Part shown: piece after piece, positions 12,567-37,294 of the stretch
Layout of the letters: the number at the start of each line of letters is the position of its first letter
How positions within the stretch are numbered: the first letter of the stretch is position 1
Source: Candidatus Omnitrophota bacterium
Lineage (GTDB): Bacteria > Omnitrophota > Gorgyraeia > 2-01-FULL-45-10
Direction of reading: 5' to 3'
DNA: 64,000 bases
NCBI GenBank assembly: GCA_028716065.1
Contig: JAQUQN010000002.1
Location: forward strand, 6,485-70,484
Made by a program: the position numbers and the translations under genes
Notes under the pieces: generated by a model
Database searches by the model: none
The model's input: the letters and a program-made list of their open reading frames with translations, nothing else
Told to the model about the DNA's origin: nothing

Positions 12567-13280
12567 ATGCCTGAGAAGGAAAATAAAGGCGCTTCTTACG
12601 CCAGGCAACTGGAAGCGATCTCGAAGGTCAGCAAGACCATCACATCCGGACTATATCTGGAAGAGATCCTGAAACTCATCGTAACCGTGACGGCGGAGAT
12701 AATGAACTCAAAGATATGTTCACTGATGCTGTTAGATGAGAAGAGCAACATGCTCGTGCTCAAGGCAACGCAGTCGATGAGCGAGGTCTATAATAAGAAG
12801 TCCCCCTTGAAGGTAGGCGAGGGCATTGCGGGCAAGGTCGCGCAACAGAACAGCCCTATGGCAATATATGATATAGCCAAGGAGGCGGAATATAAAAATA
12901 AGGACATAGCAAAAAAAGAAGGATTAAAATCCCTTCTATCCGTCCCTCTGGCAGTAAAGGGCAGGGTAATAGGCGTACTCAATAATTACACTTCTCACCC
13001 TCACAAGTTCATTAAAAGCGAAGTCGAACTTCTGACCACGGTAGCAAACCAGGCTGCCATAGTGATAGAAAACGCGGCGCTGATGCTAAAAGCGAAGGTC
13101 ATGCAGGACGAACTTGAGACCAGAAAAACGGTCGAAAGGGCCAAGGGGGTACTGATGCGCACCCAGGGCCTTTCCGAAGAGGAGGCGTTCAGAAAGATAC
13201 AGAAACAGAGCATGGACATGAGAAAAACGATGCGCGAGATTGCCGAGGCCATCCTGCTTCTCGAGAAGATGAAATCCTGA
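12567..13280 (+). CDS. GAF-ANTAR RNA-binding antiterminator-type regulator (paralog 1)
   Basis: GAF-like N-terminal two-thirds (GEGIAGKV...VPLAVKGRVIGVLN). C-terminal ANTAR signature (ERAKGVLMRTQGLSEEEAFRKIQKQSMDMRKTMREIAEAI). Confidence 0.85.
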   Translation: MPEKENKGASYARQLEAISKVSKTITSGLYLEEILKLIVTVTAEIMNSKICSLMLLDEKSNMLVLKATQSMSEVYNKKSPLKVGEGIAGKVAQQNSPMAIYDIAKEAEYKNKDIAKKEGLKSLLSVPLAVKGRVIGVLNNYTSHPHKFIKSEVELLTTVANQAAIVIENAALMLKAKVMQDELETRKTVERAKGVLMRTQGLSEEEAFRKIQKQSMDMRKTMREIAEAILLLEKMKS

Positions 13281-13343: not shown

Positions 13344-13361
13344 TATTATGAAGAGACAAGG

Positions 13362-13398
13362 ATGTCTTTCGGCAAAGTATGCTGAAAGACATTTTTTA
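13362..13398 (+). terminator. nadE leader terminator 1
   Basis: 13-bp stem ATGTCTTTCGGCA / TGCTGAAAGACAT (one G.U), loop AAGTA, then TTTTTT. Confidence 0.75.
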
Positions 13399-13408
13399 TA
13401 GACTAGGG

Positions 13409-13448
13409 CGTCTAGATCCGATATTGCGGATATAGGCGTTTTTTGTTT
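13409..13448 (+). terminator. nadE leader terminator 2
   Basis: CGTCTA-g-ATCCG-atattg-CGGAT-a-TAGGCG (11 bp, one G.U), then TTTTTTGTTT. Ends 12 nt before the nadE ATG. Confidence 0.55.
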
Positions 13449-15240: not shown

Positions 15241-15789
15241 GTGATAAGAATGAACTTAAATTTCGAAACGCTCGTCAATAGAATAACGCCCACGCTGAAA
15301 AGGATAACGCACCGGCTTAACGGCCATTTTACCTTTTTCGACGACGATGATCTATACCAGGAGGCCGTGACATATCTATGGCCGCTCTTCCAAAGAGGCA
15401 GACTTGGCGACAAGACGGACAGTTATATCCTACAGGGCTGTTATTTTCATCTTAAAAATTATATACGCACCTCGATGGACAAGGCCAAATTGATAAGCAT
15501 CTATAAGATAATAGATGCTGACGAAACCGAGCTTGGCGCGGTCCTGGCCGCGAAGGAGACGCCGGATCCGGAAAATCTGGAATACAAGATATTACTGAAA
15601 GAATCGGATAGGATGGGCCTGACGGAAAAGGAAAGGCGCGTTATATCATATTCATTGGAGGGACTTACTACAAGAGAGATAGGCGACCGCCTCGGTGTAT
15701 CTCACGTAATGGTGCTAAAGATAAAGGGAAAGATCAAACATAAGCTGCGTATTTTCAGAAATGAATACCGGAGAGGTTACCAAAATTAG
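15241..15789 (+). CDS. Sigma-70 family (ECF-like) RNA polymerase sigma factor
   Basis: Region-2-like DDLYQEAVTYLW. Region-4 HTH LTEKERRVISYSLEGLTTREIGDRLGVSHVMV. Confidence 0.7.
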   Translation: MIRMNLNFETLVNRITPTLKRITHRLNGHFTFFDDDDLYQEAVTYLWPLFQRGRLGDKTDSYILQGCYFHLKNYIRTSMDKAKLISIYKIIDADETELGAVLAAKETPDPENLEYKILLKESDRMGLTEKERRVISYSLEGLTTREIGDRLGVSHVMVLKIKGKIKHKLRIFRNEYRRGYQN

Positions 15790-15814
15790 GCATTTTTTAC
15801 TTGTAGAATCGTAG
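15774..15814 (+). promoter_or_regulatory. Conserved 41-nt box, copy 1 (upstream of porin-amtB-glnK)
   Basis: AGGTTACCAaAaTtAgGCATTTTTTACTTGTAgAaTcGTAG. 34/41 identical to 18917-18957. Contains a TAnAnT -10-like hexamer. Overlaps the sigma-factor stop codon. Confidence 0.6.
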
Positions 15815-15849
15815 CCTTGGCAACAAAGGCTAAAGACACATAGAAGTGT
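15812..15849 (+). promoter_or_regulatory. Tandem leader hairpins (amtB operon leader)
   Basis: TAGCCTT-GGCAACA-AAGGCTA and, 3 nt later, ACAC-ATAGAA-GTGT. The second has a hexaloop with A at position 1 and G at position 4, as in ANTAR target loops. Confidence 0.45.
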
Positions 15850-15859
15850 AAAAATGACG

Positions 15860-15896
15860 AAGGCGTTTGGAAGATAAAACGCCTTTTATTTTTTTC
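15860..15896 (+). terminator. amtB-operon leader terminator a
   Basis: AAGGCGTTT-ggaagata-AAACGCCTT then TTATTTTTTT. The 5' arm carries ACGAAGGCGTT. Confidence 0.75.
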
Positions 15897-15908
15897 ATAG
15901 TGGACAGG

Positions 15909-15956
15909 GACGTCTATTCTAATCCGAGGAGGAAAGGAGAGGCGTCTTTTGTTTTT
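15909..15956 (+). terminator. amtB-operon leader terminator b (weaker)
   Basis: GACGTCT / AGGCGTC (7 bp, one G.U), 24-nt loop, tail TTTTGTTTTT. Confidence 0.4.
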
Positions 15957-18916: not shown

Positions 18917-18957
18917 AGGTTACCAGAGTAACGCATTTTTTACTTGTATAGTTGTAG
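18917..18957 (+). promoter_or_regulatory. Conserved 41-nt box, copy 2 (upstream of glnA)
   Basis: AGGTTACCAgAgTaAcGCATTTTTTACTTGTAtAgTtGTAG, starting 13 nt after the glnK stop. Confidence 0.6.
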
Positions 18958-18967
18958 GGTATTAATA

Positions 18968-18983
18968 GGCACGCAGTAGTGCC
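18968..18983 (+). promoter_or_regulatory. Leader hairpin GGCAC-GCAGTA-GTGCC (glnA leader)
   Basis: 5-bp GC-rich stem with a hexaloop. Preceded by TA (TAGGCA word). Confidence 0.5.
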
Positions 18984-19010
18984 CCAAAAATAGGCAAACT
19001 TAAAGAACAG

Positions 19011-19066
19011 AGGCGTTCATTTTGGTCAGCGAGTGATTTGACCGAGTGAGCGCCTTTTTATCTTTT
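19011..19066 (+). terminator. glnA leader terminator
   Basis: 16-bp stem AGGCGTTCATTTTGGTC / GACCGAGTGAGCGCCT (three G.U, one bulge), then TTTTTATCTTTT. Ends 28 nt before the glnA ATG. Confidence 0.7.
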
Positions 19067-20668: not shown

Positions 20669-20854
20669 ATGGATGACAACCTACCCATTTACAGAACGAT
20701 CATAGCGCAGGTTGAAAAACCGCTCATAGAGATGGCCCTGGAGAGAACGAGCGGCAATCAGATCAGGGCCGCCGAACTGTTAGGGATCAATCGTAATACG
20801 ATCCGCACCAAGATAAAAAAACTCGGCATCGACGTCAAGAGATGGAAGGTATGA
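20669..20854 (+). CDS. Stand-alone Fis/NtrC-C-terminal-type HTH protein (61 aa)
   Basis: [26 protein letters not shown] is an HTH_8-type motif. Its stop overlaps the gltB start (ATGA). Confidence 0.65.
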
Positions 20855-29090: not shown

Positions 29091-29119
29091 ATATCATCAA
29101 TATTATGTTAAAAGGGGAC

Positions 29120-29159
29120 AAAGACGTCCGCTAAAAAAAGCGGCGTCTTTTTTTATTTT
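29120..29159 (+). terminator. nfnAB-gdhA leader terminator
   Basis: AAAGACG-t-CCGC-taaaaaaa-GCGG-CGTCTTT (11 bp, one bulge), then TTTTATTTT. About 25 nt after the promoter -10. Confidence 0.75.
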
Positions 29160-30030: not shown

Positions 30031-32800
<2,770 letters not shown>

Positions 32801-32823
32801 CGGAGGGCGGTAAAAAATAATAC

Positions 32824-32852
32824 TTGACAAAATAGACAAATCGTGGTATAAA
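32824..32852 (+). promoter_or_regulatory. Sigma70-type promoter (TTGACA-N17-TATAAA, TGn) for GAF-ANTAR-2 leader
   Basis: Lies 24 nt after the gdhA stop. Followed by three terminators. Confidence 0.6.
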
Positions 32853-32869
32853 TAGTTGATTAAAAATTA

Positions 32870-32886
32870 GGCACAAAGTCAGTGCC
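32870..32886 (+). promoter_or_regulatory. Leader hairpin GGCAC-AAAGTCA-GTGCC (GAF-ANTAR-2 leader)
   Basis: Same stem as 18968-18983 and a related loop (AGT-A). Preceded by TTA (TAGGCA word). Confidence 0.5.
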
Positions 32887-32902
32887 ATAATGAGAAAGGA
32901 CG

Positions 32903-32933
32903 AAGGCGTTCGAAAGAACGCCTTTCTCTTTTT
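32903..32933 (+). terminator. GAF-ANTAR-2 leader terminator 1 (may also end the gdhA transcript)
   Basis: AAGGCGTTC-GAAA-GAACGCCTT then TCTCTTTTT. The 5' arm carries ACGAAGGCGTT. Confidence 0.65.
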
Positions 32934-32973
32934 AGACAACCTTTCTCTTTCAACGCGGAAAACCTGGATAAAG

Positions 32974-33018
32974 ACGTCCGATCTGGCAGTATCATAATGC
33001 CGGAGAGGGCGTTTTTTT
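32974..33018 (+). terminator. GAF-ANTAR-2 leader terminator 2
   Basis: ACGTCCGATCTGGC / GCCGGAGAGGGCGT (12 pairs including two G.U, tandem G-A internal loop), then TTTTTTT. The 5' arm carries AAAGACGTCCG. Confidence 0.7.
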
Positions 33019-33025
33019 ATGAACG

Positions 33026-33070
33026 AAGGCGTTCTGTGCCGATAAACGGCGCATTGCGCCTTATTTTTTT
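33026..33070 (+). terminator. GAF-ANTAR-2 leader terminator 3
   Basis: Outer AAGGCG/CGCCTT plus inner TGTGCCG-ataaa-CGGCGCA, then TTATTTTTTT. The 5' arm carries ACGAAGGCGTT. Ends 10 nt before ATG 33081. Confidence 0.7.
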
Positions 33071-33080
33071 AGGTGACGCC

Positions 33081-33776
33081 ATGTCATACGAAGAACAGAT
33101 AAAGGCATTATCACGGATAAGCAGGGCCATAGCATCCGATCAATACCTGGAAGATATCCTACGCCTCATAGTCACGGTAACCGCGGAGATGATGGGTTCG
33201 AACATATGTTCGCTCATGCTGCTGGATGAGAACAGGAATGAGCTCATCATAAGGGCGACTCAAAGCGTAAGCGATGCATACAATAAAAAACCACCAGTAA
33301 AAATAGGCGAAGGCATAGCAGGCAAGGTATTCAAGGAGAAGGTGCCGGTAAAGGTCCTTGACGTGCGCAAAGATAAAAATTACATAAGCAGGAGCATAGC
33401 GAAGAAAGAAGGGCTGTGCTCGCTCCTGTGTGTACCCCTGATAGTCAAGAATAAGGCCATAGGGGTCCTAAATTGCTACACATCGAAACCCCGCGATTTC
33501 AGCGAGACGGAGACGAATATCCTGGCGACCATCGCCAATCAGGCGGCGGTAGCCATAGAGAATACGGAATTGATGGTCAGGAGCAAGGTCATACAGGAAG
33601 AGCTGGAGGTACGTAAGAAGATAGAACGCGCCAAGGGCATCATAATGAAGAGGGAGGGATTGAAAGAGGAAGAGGCCTATTTAAAACTCAGGAAATACAG
33701 TATGGATAGCCGTAAGACGATGCGCGAAATAGCGGATGCCATCATTCTTACGGAGGATTTAAGCAAGAAATTATAA
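33081..33776 (+). CDS. GAF-ANTAR RNA-binding antiterminator-type regulator (paralog 2)
   Basis: Roughly 55% identical by eye to 12567-13280. ANTAR signature ERAKGIIMKREGLKEEEAYLKLRKYSMDSRKTMREIADAI. Start at ATG 33081, downstream of the leader terminators. Confidence 0.85.
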   Translation: MSYEEQIKALSRISRAIASDQYLEDILRLIVTVTAEMMGSNICSLMLLDENRNELIIRATQSVSDAYNKKPPVKIGEGIAGKVFKEKVPVKVLDVRKDKNYISRSIAKKEGLCSLLCVPLIVKNKAIGVLNCYTSKPRDFSETETNILATIANQAAVAIENTELMVRSKVIQEELEVRKKIERAKGIIMKREGLKEEEAYLKLRKYSMDSRKTMREIADAIILTEDLSKKL

Positions 33777-33800: not shown

Positions 33801-35393
33801 ATGAATTTGTTGAGGCCAAATGGTAATGATGCAACAAAGACCTTCAACAGGTCCAAAAACGTGGTGCCCGGTTCGGGCATATGTTCAAGGTGCATAGACG
33901 GATGTAAGGGTAATTGTGAAATATTCAAGTCGTCATTCAGAGGCCGTGAGGTCATCTATCCCGGCCCATTCGGCGATGTAACGGCCGGTGGAGACAAGGA
34001 TTACCCCGTGGACTATTCACACCTCAATATCCAGGGATATGCCCAGGGGGCAAAGGGCCTGCCCAACGGCACCGAAGGAAACCCGGATACGGCCACGTTT
34101 CCGGCAGTCGACGTCGGAACGGAATACGGATGGGATAAGAAGGTCAAGATGCAGCTGCCCATCTTTACGGGGGCGCTGGGTTCCACAGAAGTGGCGCGAA
34201 AGAACTGGGAGCATTTCGCTATAGGTGCGGCGATATCCGGTATAACGATAGTCTGCGGTGAGAACGTCTGCGGGATAGACCCGAAGCTTGAGCTCGACTC
34301 CAAGGGTAAGATCGTAAGCGCTCCTGACATGGACAGGCGCATAGAGACCTACAAAAAGTTCCATAACGGCTTTGGGGAGATCCTCGTGCAGATGAACGTG
34401 GAAGATACGCGGCTGGGCGTAGCCGAATATATCCGCAAGAAACATAAGCTCGACACGATAGAGCTGAAATGGGGGCAGGGCGCAAAGTGTATAGGCGGAG
34501 AGATAAAGGTCTCCAGCATTGAACGCGCCAAGGAATTGAAGAGGCGCGGATACATAGTCACTCCCGACCCGACGGTCCATGCTAATGAACAAGCATTTAA
34601 GGATGGCGCCATAAAAGAATTCGAAAGGCATTCAAGGCTCGGTTTCGTCTCGGAAGAATCTTTCATGAAAGAGGTCAAACGTCTTCGCGACCTCGGTTTC
34701 AAGAGGATTACGGTAAAGACCGGGGCATATTCCATGGTAGAGCTGGCGCAGGCCATACGGTATTCCGCGAACGCCAAGATAGATCTCTTGACCATAGACG
34801 GCGCGCCGGGCGGGACCGGGATGAGCCCGTGGCGCATGATGGAAGAGTGGGGCATACCGACATTCTACCTGCAGGCGTTGACGTACCAGTTCTGCGAGAA
34901 GCTGAGAAAAAAGAAGATAAGGGTCCCGGATATAGCCATCGCGGGAGGATTTTCGCTGGAAGACCATGTCTTTAAAGCGATAGCGATGGGCGCGCCGTAC
35001 GTGAAGGCGGTCTGCATGGGACGCGCGCTGATGATACCCGGTTTCGTGGGAAAGAACATCGGAGAATGGATAAAAGAAGGCAAACTGCCTCCGACCATAT
35101 CTGAATTCGGGACAAAACCTGAAGAGATATTCGTATGTTACGAAGAGCTGGTGGACCGGTTCGGCAAGGAGATGAAGAATATATCCCTAGGTGCCGTAGG
35201 TATTTACAGCTTCGCCCAGAGGGTCAAGGTCGGACTGCAGCAGCTCATGGCCGGCTCGAGGAACTTCAGGCTCAATACGATCTCCAGGAACGACCTCATG
35301 AGCCTGACGGAAGAGGCCGCCAAAATATCAGGCATTCCATACGTCATGGACGCGTATCGTAAAGAGGCAGAGGCGATCATCGACGGCAAATAA
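33801..35393 (+). CDS. FMN-binding glutamate-synthase-related protein (GltB domain-2 only) with N-terminal Cys cluster
   Basis: 530 aa. CSRCIDGCKGNC near the N-terminus, and a TIM-barrel FMN region (IELKWGQGAK...TIDGAPGGTG). Confidence 0.8.
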   Translation: MNLLRPNGNDATKTFNRSKNVVPGSGICSRCIDGCKGNCEIFKSSFRGREVIYPGPFGDVTAGGDKDYPVDYSHLNIQGYAQGAKGLPNGTEGNPDTATFPAVDVGTEYGWDKKVKMQLPIFTGALGSTEVARKNWEHFAIGAAISGITIVCGENVCGIDPKLELDSKGKIVSAPDMDRRIETYKKFHNGFGEILVQMNVEDTRLGVAEYIRKKHKLDTIELKWGQGAKCIGGEIKVSSIERAKELKRRGYIVTPDPTVHANEQAFKDGAIKEFERHSRLGFVSEESFMKEVKRLRDLGFKRITVKTGAYSMVELAQAIRYSANAKIDLLTIDGAPGGTGMSPWRMMEEWGIPTFYLQALTYQFCEKLRKKKIRVPDIAIAGGFSLEDHVFKAIAMGAPYVKAVCMGRALMIPGFVGKNIGEWIKEGKLPPTISEFGTKPEEIFVCYEELVDRFGKEMKNISLGAVGIYSFAQRVKVGLQQLMAGSRNFRLNTISRNDLMSLTEEAAKISGIPYVMDAYRKEAEAIIDGK

Positions 35394-35404: not shown

Positions 35405-35542
35405 ATGAAAAAGAAAGGGTTGTGTTCCAACTGCTCCAATCACGGCAACTGTATCTTCTTGAAAGAGCCTCCTGTGTTGCAATGCGAGGAATATACGTTT
35501 CTACAGCCTAAGGCCGCGAAAGAGAAGAGAGCTCGCCGATAA
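35405..35542 (+). CDS. Small Cys-rich protein (45 aa; below ORF-track cutoff)
   Basis: RBS aaaggagg 6 nt upstream. Sequence MKKKGLCSNCSNHGNCIFLKEPPVLQCEEY... has a CxxCx5C...C pattern. Lies 11 nt after the GltB-like gene. Confidence 0.35.
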   Translation: MKKKGLCSNCSNHGNCIFLKEPPVLQCEEYTFLQPKAAKEKRARR

Positions 35543-35556
35543 GAGCCCGTAACGGT

Positions 35557-35584
35557 TTGACATATTAAAAAAATGTGATATACT
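35557..35584 (+). promoter_or_regulatory. Sigma70-type promoter (TTGACA-N16-TATACT, TGn) for pyrG-carA-carB(N-half)
   Basis: Exact -35 and extended -10 TGa. Confidence 0.6.
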
Positions 35585-35619
35585 GTTCGAGTAGCTCAGA
35601 GCGGATCTACTATAAAAAC

Positions 35620-37294
<1,675 letters not shown>

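Follow-up and report, generated by a model that had tools for sequence, protein, structure and literature searches.

As defined in PMC3369931, the RNA substrate of ANTAR proteins is a pair of short stem-loops whose loops have A in position 1 and G in position 4; the second stem-loop overlaps an intrinsic terminator in its 5' part. This motif has been linked to nitrogen regulons, and regulons of this kind were predicted in 2012; the one in Desulfotomaculum acetoxidans, for example, comprises at least 13 sites distributed over six transcription units (PMC3369931). In Geobacter, the GnfR site CAGGCAANGGCGCC has the form GGC-AANGGC-GCC (PMC2995071). One-component GAF-ANTAR regulators had no characterised member as of 2012 (PMC3369931) and 2020 (PMC7496416), and a literature search found no paper on ANTAR regulation in Omnitrophota. 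Here, 64,000 nucleotides (nt) of a Candidatus Omnitrophota bacterium (GCA_028716065.1, JAQUQN010000002.1, positions 6,485-70,484, forward strand) were analysed. This whole stretch is called the window. It encodes a GAF-ANTAR protein, GAF-ANTAR-2, whose leader contains three terminators. The leader can, with good confidence, be read from its sequence as three independent, protein-dependent ANTAR-type attenuators in series that are off by default.

Terminators and alternative hairpins in the leader

The leader was compared with those of GAF-ANTAR-2 homologs (62-76% identical), whose loci were taken from 80 genomes, the majority of them Candidatus Omnitrophota metagenome-assembled genomes (MAGs). 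Related loci in this comparison set are labelled L001, L002 and so on, and window and related loci together give a search space of 498 kb. Hairpins are written as stem strand, loop and stem strand joined by hyphens, and A1/G4 denotes A at loop position 1 and G at loop position 4. The following features lie in the leader and directly after it.

32824-32852, + strand: predicted sigma-70-type promoter, read from the sequence (TTGACA 32824-32829, 17-nt spacer, TATAAA 32847-32852)
32870-32886, + strand: P1 of module 1, GGCAC (32870-32874)-AAAGUCA-GUGCC (32882-32886), with a 7-nt loop that has A1 and G4
32898-32911, + strand: P2 of module 1, GGAC-GAAGGC-GUUC, overlapping the T1 5' arm; the loop has G1 in place of the canonical A, and G4 is present
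32902-32933, + strand: terminator T1, a 10-bp stem (GAAGGCGTTC 32902-32911 and GAACGCCTTT 32916-32925), GAAA loop, and tail CTCTTTTT (CUCUUUUU as RNA) ending at 32933
32948-32961, + strand: P1' of module 2, UUUC-AACGCG-GAAA, with an A1/G4 hexaloop; orthologs have UUUC-ARRGUYA-GAAA at the same place
32965-32980 (core 32966-32979), + strand: P2' of module 2, (U)GGAU-AAAGAC-GUCC(G), with an A1/G4 hexaloop, overlapping the T2 5' arm
32973-33018, + strand: terminator T2, with outer stem GACGUCC 32973-32979/GGGCGUU 33007-33013 (two G-U pairs), inner stem CUGGCA/UGCCGG and 7 U at 33012-33018
32996-33013, + strand: alternative hairpin AAUGCC-GGAGAG-GGCGUU, a weak and speculative P1 for module 3 once T2 is open
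33021-33034, + strand: P2'' of module 3, GAAC-GAAGGC-GUUC, overlapping the T3 5' arm; orthologs have RAAC-RANGGC-GUUY
33026-33070, + strand: terminator T3, with outer stem AAGGCG 33026-33031/CGCCUU 33057-33062, inner stem UGUGCCG/CGGCGCA, 7 U at 33064-33070 and tail AUUUUUUU
33071-33776, + strand: Shine-Dalgarno sequence AGGUGA and coding sequence of GAF-ANTAR-2 (ATG 33081), 231 amino acids, Pfam GAF_2 (6e-24) and ANTAR (PF03861, 6e-20)

A first-pass annotation had listed three terminators, a promoter, the GGCAC/GTGCC hairpin and a direct repeat with an upstream complement, and all of these elements are present where it had placed them. T1, T2 and T3 were each found by two terminator scans (dG -16, -22 and -22 kcal/mol, respectively). 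All three are G+C-rich hairpins followed directly by a U-tract, as an intrinsic terminator is defined. The U-tract of T1, CUCUUUUU, is interrupted, and T2 and T3 have 7 U each. T3 does end 10 nt before the ATG at 33081, and these 10 nt hold the Shine-Dalgarno sequence AGGTGA. Folding of the full leader (228 nt), which the same annotation had proposed, gave -91.7 kcal/mol (z = -7.6 against shuffles). The opposite strand gave -67.1 kcal/mol (z = -3.5). This difference fits an RNA that is read from the + strand and has G-U pairs in its stems, and the G-U pairs of T2 make its structure strand-specific.

A 3-kb scan found 7 terminator-like sites, with 2.7 +/- 1.8 in shuffles. Under the tightened ("strict") scan criteria on which the terminator counts rest, there are 25 + strand terminators per 64 kb, and three in 170 nt have a rough Poisson probability of ~5e-5 per position and ~0.02 window-wide. 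Conservation in other genomes is a stronger argument for the terminators than these clustering statistics.

The promoter also carries a TG at 32844-32845 and thus has an extended -10. The promoter scan did not list 32824-32852, as the tool demands T at position 6 of the -10 hexamer. TTGACA was found equally far upstream of the first hairpin in the orthologous leaders L001, L005, L010, L023, L030, L037 and L070. The stretch from the gdhA stop (32800) to this promoter is free of terminators in two terminator scans, and orthologs likewise have none there. Transcripts that read through from gdhA would thus meet T1-T3, as had been suggested. This absence of a terminator from the gdhA stop to T1, and the near symmetry of T1, which scores on the minus strand too, would suit unregulated fail-safe terminators that end a highly expressed gdhA operon, with GAF-ANTAR-2 read from an unrecognised downstream promoter. 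This appears very unlikely. The conserved TTGACA promoter precedes T1, T2 and T3 alike, the gap between T3 and the ATG is too short for a promoter, and the order promoter-P1-P2-terminator is also found where the upstream gene is not gdhA and in the leaders of six other transcription units in the window.

Every terminator shares its 5' arm with a 4-bp mini-hairpin that the first-pass annotation had not listed; the hexaloop of this mini-hairpin has G4, and loop and 3' strand together make up the arm. At T1, T2 and T3 alike, this second hairpin overlaps the 5' half of the terminator, and the two folds are mutually exclusive. The two stems measure 5 bp and 4 bp in module 1 (linker 11 nt) and 4 bp and 4-5 bp in module 2 (linker 3-4 nt), so that both modules have the two hairpins of an ANTAR target RNA. 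In module 3, P2 is clear and P1 is uncertain. The upstream hairpins and mini-hairpins of modules 1 and 2 are predicted to be dual-hairpin antiterminators of the kind recognised by ANTAR proteins. Retaining P1 and P2 costs stability relative to the terminator folds, ~11 kcal/mol in module 1 and ~8 kcal/mol in module 2, and the isolated P2 hairpins reach only about -3 kcal/mol. Transcripts are therefore expected to terminate by default and to be extended only when a protein keeps P2 closed. Antitermination-dependent control of the regulator gene, as proposed in the first-pass annotation, is strongly implied by the sequence.

The mechanism had also been called "possibly processive", and this part is not borne out. 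Terminators in series are typical targets of processive systems, in which RNA polymerase, once modified by one RNA or protein signal upstream, ignores all of them. Such a system would be expected to have just one recruitment element, placed upstream, and to lack alternative structures at the individual terminators, yet a P2 lies over every terminator, which a processive mechanism does not need. These local mini-hairpins are the signature of site-by-site ANTAR antitermination and not of a modified RNA polymerase. As each terminator has its own local switch, processive antitermination is unnecessary. The module also occurs as a single copy in many leaders, and Rfam gave no put, EAR or nut-like family. 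Processive control is thus considered extremely improbable.

Mini-hairpins of this type are not limited to the one leader. A hexaloop mini-hairpin lies over the 5' arm of 136 of the 227 strict + strand terminators in the window and the 80 loci, and 55 of the 136 have A1/G4. In the minus-strand control, A1/G4 occurred in 5 of 92, as expected by chance (1 in 16). A covariance model, R1, was trained on 21 dual hairpins, all from genomes other than that of the window, and was run on both strands of the full 64 kb with filters off. Its best match in the window is 32870-32911, P1 and P2 of module 1 (37.1 bits, E 9e-6). The next matches are in the glnA, gdhA-operon and porin-amtB leaders, module 3, and the nadE, second amtB module and pyrG leaders. 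All eight top matches are intergenic and on the + strand. The module 3 match (32996-33034; 18.1 bits, E 0.06) takes 32996-33013 as P1.

Over the 498 kb, R1 found 50 matches at E <= 0.05, with 50 on the gene strand and 0 on the opposite strand. In the alignment of these matches (A3), which is fitted to the model and therefore inflates the paired percentage, 98.8% of the cells in both helices are paired. A total of 51 cells are changed on both sides, and 0 of 500 shuffles were as high. Changes on both sides affect six of nine pairs, and slid controls were all far lower, again with an alignment fitted to the model. The P1 loop consensus among orthologs is A-R-N-G-U-Y-A.

Other readings of single elements were tried and rejected. 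The GGCAC/GTGCC sequence is not taken as a DNA palindrome for a transcription factor; its stems covary, its loops are conserved, the strands score 50 to 0, and G-U pairs adjoin it. GGCAC-N-TGC does not fit a sigma-54 promoter, with a GG-to-GC spacing of 13-14 nt and not 11. A longer GAF-ANTAR-2 open reading frame from 32997 was set aside, as orthologs begin at Met 33081 and the Shine-Dalgarno sequence precedes it.

Several points, besides the inflated paired percentage, weigh against the ANTAR-type reading. R1 did not recover module 2 in the window at E <= 10. An A1/G4 hexaloop in both hairpins is found only in module 2; in module 1, P1 has a 7-nt A1/G4 loop and P2 has G1 and G4, and in module 3 the P2 loop is GAAGGC. 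The P1 loops of this system mostly have 7 nt and not 6, and the P2 loops of modules 1 and 3 start with G in the window (GAAGGC). For these two, RNAfold favours 5-bp stems capped by tetraloops. The window offers no convincing P1 for module 3; the T2 apical loop GUAUCAUAA is unsuitable and the alternative hairpin reaches only E 0.06. The module 2 linker of 3-4 nt is shorter than the 5-12 nt in E. faecalis. Finally, Rfam has no matching family and so offers no curated model for comparison. At gathering thresholds, the whole 64-kb window gave no match, and a permissive scan (E <= 10) of 32500-33300 gave only chance-level matches (E >= 2), such as GibS and miRNA families.

In the window, module 2 has the exact P2' sequence GGATAAAGACGTCC. 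At the equivalent place, 11 other loci have GGAT-N6-GTCC with a loop of the A1/G4 type, six of them as the identical 14-mer, and in those 11 loci the UUUC-ARRGUYA-GAAA hairpin lies upstream of P2'. GGAT-N6-GTCC has 19 matches on the + strand, six of them apparently chance matches in coding sequence, and 4 on the - strand.

The 7-nt P1 loops and G1 P2 loops depart from the canonical ANTAR motif, and the hairpins could be recognised by another factor, either a metabolite riboswitch (for example for glutamine) or another RNA-binding protein. Tandem riboswitches on nitrogen genes are known. This is considered unlikely, as the leader has no Rfam family match above chance level even at E <= 10, and its tiny hairpins, conserved loops and covarying stems include no conserved core of ligand-pocket size. 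Another factor would also leave the association with ANTAR unexplained: the motif tracks GAF-ANTAR genes, with 34 of the 46 R1 matches in the loci upstream of the GAF-ANTAR gene, and it fits published ANTAR and GnfR sites.

Conservation of the triple stack and helix P0

The P2 hairpins belong to two classes. Class A has the form RAAC-ANNGGC-GUUY and class B the form GGAU-AAAGAC-GUCC. Wherever module 2 was seen it is class B, and most leaders have class A hairpins in modules 1 and 3. The terminator order class A, B, A was found upstream of the ortholog in L001, L002, L006, L009, L010, L014, L039 and L046, and variants were found in L005 and L029. The A-B-A layout is thus present in about ten Omnitrophota genomes, variants included. 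At least one strict module was found in 32 of 77 leaders and in 0 of 77 coding-region controls. The stack had been called unusual. Three terminators are indeed the upper end of a range of one to three, but two or three modules recur in orthologs, and two other leaders in the window carry two each. As A-B-A recurs, the three-terminator stack appears to be an inherited design and not a one-off.

T1 and T3 also share sequence. The 12-mer ACGAAGGCGTTC is the 5' arm of both and forms an exact 12-nt repeat at 32900 and 33023. Near-copies form terminator 5' arms in the porin-amtB and glnA leaders. The T3 mini-hairpin directly follows T2, and in several orthologs the T2 apex bears a P1-type loop, ARRGTCT (P1-type apex seen in L006, L009, L014 and L046). 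In those orthologs the T2 apex thus probably serves as P1 for module 3.

The direct repeat CCTTTCTCTTT occurs at 32921 and 32940, and both copies are complementary to 32889-32899. The second copy forms a helix, P0.

32892-32899, + strand: helix P0 5' strand, GAGAAAGG, which pairs with 32940-32947, also in the minimum free energy fold of the leader, encloses T1 and overlaps the P2 5' strand
32940-32947, + strand: helix P0 3' strand, CCUUUCUC, also written CCTTTCTC

The P0 duplex has z = -3.6 in the window. It covaries, with compensating sequences in L039 (CAGGGAAC/GTTCCCTG), L029 (TTTAGGGG/CCCCTAAA), L046, L014 and L006. P0 was found mainly in leaders that have a second module. It is missing from most single-module leaders, yet L012, L004 and L028 scored too. 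The pairing of CCTTTCTC with GAGAAAGG, noticed earlier as a possible alternative fold, is therefore a real and covarying helix. It does not appear to act as an antiterminator: the T1 U-tract has already been transcribed before the 3' strand of the helix, so P0 is unable to decide termination at T1. In read-through RNA, P0 is predicted to enclose T1 and displace P2.

GAF-ANTAR paralogs and the nitrogen gene island

GAF-ANTAR-2 is one of two ANTAR-domain proteins encoded in the window. An exact-protein look-up found no record for it. The paralog and the gene downstream are as follows.

12567-13280, + strand: GAF-ANTAR-1, 58% identical to GAF-ANTAR-2 (PF03861, 3.5e-22), without an attenuator match upstream
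33801-35393, + strand: glutamate-synthase-domain (flavin mononucleotide) protein, Pfam Glu_synthase, 24 nt past the GAF-ANTAR-2 stop and co-transcribed

The gene pair GAF-ANTAR and gltB-like is present in ~35 of 80 loci, and gdhA lies upstream in six. In many orthologous loci (L013, L016, L017 and others; L022, L044, L053 and L078), the spacer between the two genes has 100-480 nt and its own dual-hairpin match, whereas in the window the spacer has just 24 nt and no attenuator. Directly after the gltB-like gene there is a small Cys-rich open reading frame (MKKKGLCSNCSNHGNC..., 35406-35543).

It is plausible from the sequence that GAF-ANTAR-2 opens its own leader, which would be positive autoregulation, as the first-pass annotation had it. 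GAF-ANTAR-1 could open the leader instead, and the circuit would then be a cascade. GAF-ANTAR-1 follows the preceding gene directly and has no attenuator upstream, so it is possibly constitutive. In Geobacter, there is a precedent for a cascade, as the ANTAR regulator GnfR is itself an output of an upstream regulator (PMC2995071). In another form of this alternative, each paralog reads one of the two P2 classes (GGC-GUUC or GAC-GUCC), which would make A-B-A an AND gate. The paralogs are merely 58% identical, and the class B module 2 in every leader seen and class A modules 1 and 3 in most would suit such a division. Published work suggests that recognition is mainly of the first and fourth loop positions together with the closing pair (PMC3369931), features common to both classes, and the class difference may just mirror conservation of the terminator stem. 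A cascade or AND gate with ANTAR-type attenuators is held only as a tentative alternative. A more elaborate version, in which GAF-ANTAR-2 is made only with both paralogs active while P0 and the T2-apex P1 loops couple the termination decisions and pass protein along the transcript, is doubtful.

The GAF domains of both paralogs scored best against the N-terminal GAF domains of PtsP/EI-Ntr and NifA, and against the structures 3ci6, 3trc and 4g3k (PtsP and NifA-like GAF). PtsP/EI-Ntr and NifA GAF domains sense glutamine and 2-oxoglutarate. By analogy, the signal is likely a nitrogen-status ligand, and either of these two would be a reasonable candidate.

The genes around the two paralogs form a same-strand island. 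In order, these are GAF-ANTAR-1, nadE (glutamine-dependent NAD synthase), an extracytoplasmic function (ECF)-like sigma factor, a porin, amtB, a PII-like gene, glnA, a 61-aa Fis-like helix-turn-helix (HTH) protein, gltB, gltD, a gltA-type NADPH-dependent glutamate synthase with an FAD/NAD-binding partner, gdhA, GAF-ANTAR-2, the glutamate-synthase-domain gene, pyrG, carA and carB. The following leaders of the island contain modules.

13354-13440, + strand: nadE leader, two modules, AGAC-AAGGAU-GUCU and AGAC-UAGGGC-GUCU, each over a terminator
15835-15955, + strand: porin-amtB leader, two modules, ACAC-AUAGAA-GUGU with GAC-GAAGGC-GUU, then GGAC-AGGGAC-GUCU
18968-19060, + strand: glnA leader, one module, GGCAC-GCAGUA-GUGCC and GAAC-AGAGGC-GUUC, with a terminator; R1 E 5e-4
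29099-29155, + strand: gdhA-operon leader (operon from 29200), one module, GGAC-AAAGAC-GUCC, with a terminator; R1 E 4e-3
35590-35665, + strand: pyrG leader, AAAC-AAUGGC-GUUU over a hairpin with a weak U-tract

The same module type in the nadE, porin-amtB-glnB, glnA, gdhA-operon and pyrG-carAB leaders makes the GAF-ANTAR-2 leader one node of a nitrogen-assimilation ANTAR regulon.

These leaders also differ in detail. In the first nadE module (13354-13393) and the gdhA-operon module (29116-29149), P2 lies close to the predicted transcription start and has no recognisable P1 upstream. The nadE terminator apex bears a P1-like loop, GC-AAAGUAU-GC, and in some modules the second loop may lie 3' of P2. 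The pyrG-carAB leader (35557-35680) has a consensus TTGACA-N17-TATACT promoter and a strong hairpin with the weak U-tract ATCATTTAA. Its module could be a degenerate or non-terminating variant.

A non-consensus promoter-like element, GGTTACC-N11-TTTTTTACTTGTAnAnT, is common to the porin-amtB (15775-15802) and glnA (18918-18945) leaders, and none is expected by chance. It was also found in L002, L011, L012, L017, L026 and L028, and in five of these six it closely precedes the GAF-ANTAR leader's first attenuator hairpin. The ECF-like sigma-70 family gene (15241-15789) lies directly upstream of the first GGTTACC element, and its product might read the element. The stand-alone 61-aa Fis/NtrC-type HTH protein (20669-20854) is encoded between glnA and gltB, with an overlap into the start of gltB, and might act in the nitrogen circuit as a DNA-binding partner.

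Proposed mechanism and comparison with known systems

A mechanism can be proposed from the structures and their overlap, conservation, covariation, strand bias and distribution across the regulon; protein binding, the paralog that binds, the ligand and the kinetics are its inferred parts. Transcription would start at the strong, conserved sigma-70-type promoter. By default, each terminator would fold and most transcripts would end near 32933, 33018 and 33070. An active GAF-ANTAR protein, presumably a dimer, would bind the P1-type loop (A-N-N-G-U-Y-A) and the P2 hexaloop (R-N-N-G-R-C). P2 would then be held closed, which would block the terminator because the P2 loop and 3' strand are the terminator 5' arm, and RNA polymerase could read through. 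The three sites would be opened separately, so that output would be about the product of three read-through probabilities. Such multiplication would give very low basal expression and a steep response of the regulator gene and the co-transcribed gltB-like gene. Once polymerase is past T1, P0 would close round T1 and displace P2, and it probably insulates module 1 from module 2 or frees the protein.

The locus offers a concrete system for the GAF-ANTAR class, with a defined RNA site that occurs ten times in one 23-kb gene island. The predicted regulon is coherent and covers ammonium uptake, glutamine synthetase/glutamate synthase (GS/GOGAT), glutamate dehydrogenase (GDH), and glutamine-dependent synthesis of NAD, CTP and carbamoyl phosphate. 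It gives a first view of how Omnitrophota may control nitrogen assimilation, mainly via attenuation. The conserved triple attenuator on the regulator's own gene is also a natural case in which the effects of serial attenuators on threshold and leakiness can be studied.

The leader appears to work like, and by most criteria to belong to, the family of ANTAR dual-hairpin attenuators (EutV, NasR, AmiR and GnfR). Like the sites of EutV (Enterococcus faecalis eutP/G/S/A), NasR (nasF) and AmiR (amiE), it has paired stem-loops, with A1/G4 hexaloops in both hairpins of module 2, the second over the 5' half of a terminator, and it likewise has predicted default termination, an ANTAR protein encoded nearby and several sites per locus (PMC3369931, PMC8934654). 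The sensor differs, as it is a GAF domain here and a receiver in EutV, a NIT domain in NasR and a pseudo-receiver in AmiR. Unlike in the sites of these proteins, the P1 loops mostly have 7 nt and two of three P2 loops start with G. The three sites lie within ~200 nt before the regulator's own gene, whereas the eut sites are spread through the operon. An extra helix, P0, closes round T1, unlike in the EutV, NasR and AmiR systems.

Glutamine riboswitches (glnA RNA) are found in tandem on nitrogen genes, bind their metabolite directly and have a larger conserved core. The modules here resemble them as repeated RNA elements in nitrogen-gene leaders, but differ in having no Rfam match. The GnfK/GnfR system of Geobacter sulfurreducens is closer; it also controls a nitrogen regulon (nifH, glnK, amtB and others) through leader terminators, and the GnfR loop AANGGC equals the class A P2 loop consensus found here (AAAGGC, AATGGC, AGAGGC) (PMC2995071). 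GnfR is a phosphorylated response regulator whose gene is under GnfM and sigma-54, whereas the putative regulator here is a one-component GAF protein with sites in its own leader (PMC2995071). The predicted D. acetoxidans regulon is similar in its several attenuators per unit and its PII, amtB and glutamine/glutamate synthase genes (PMC3369931). That prediction was for Firmicutes, with canonical hexaloops and no conserved triple A-B-A regulator leader, and Omnitrophota were outside its coverage (PMC3369931).

The mechanism itself would be the established ANTAR one and not a new one, so the locus should be useful rather than surprising to a specialist. It differs from the known systems in its GAF sensor, its 7-nt P1 loops, the G1 in two of three P2 loops, the P0 helix and the conserved stack of three sites in the leader of the regulator itself, and it comes from an uncultivated phylum.

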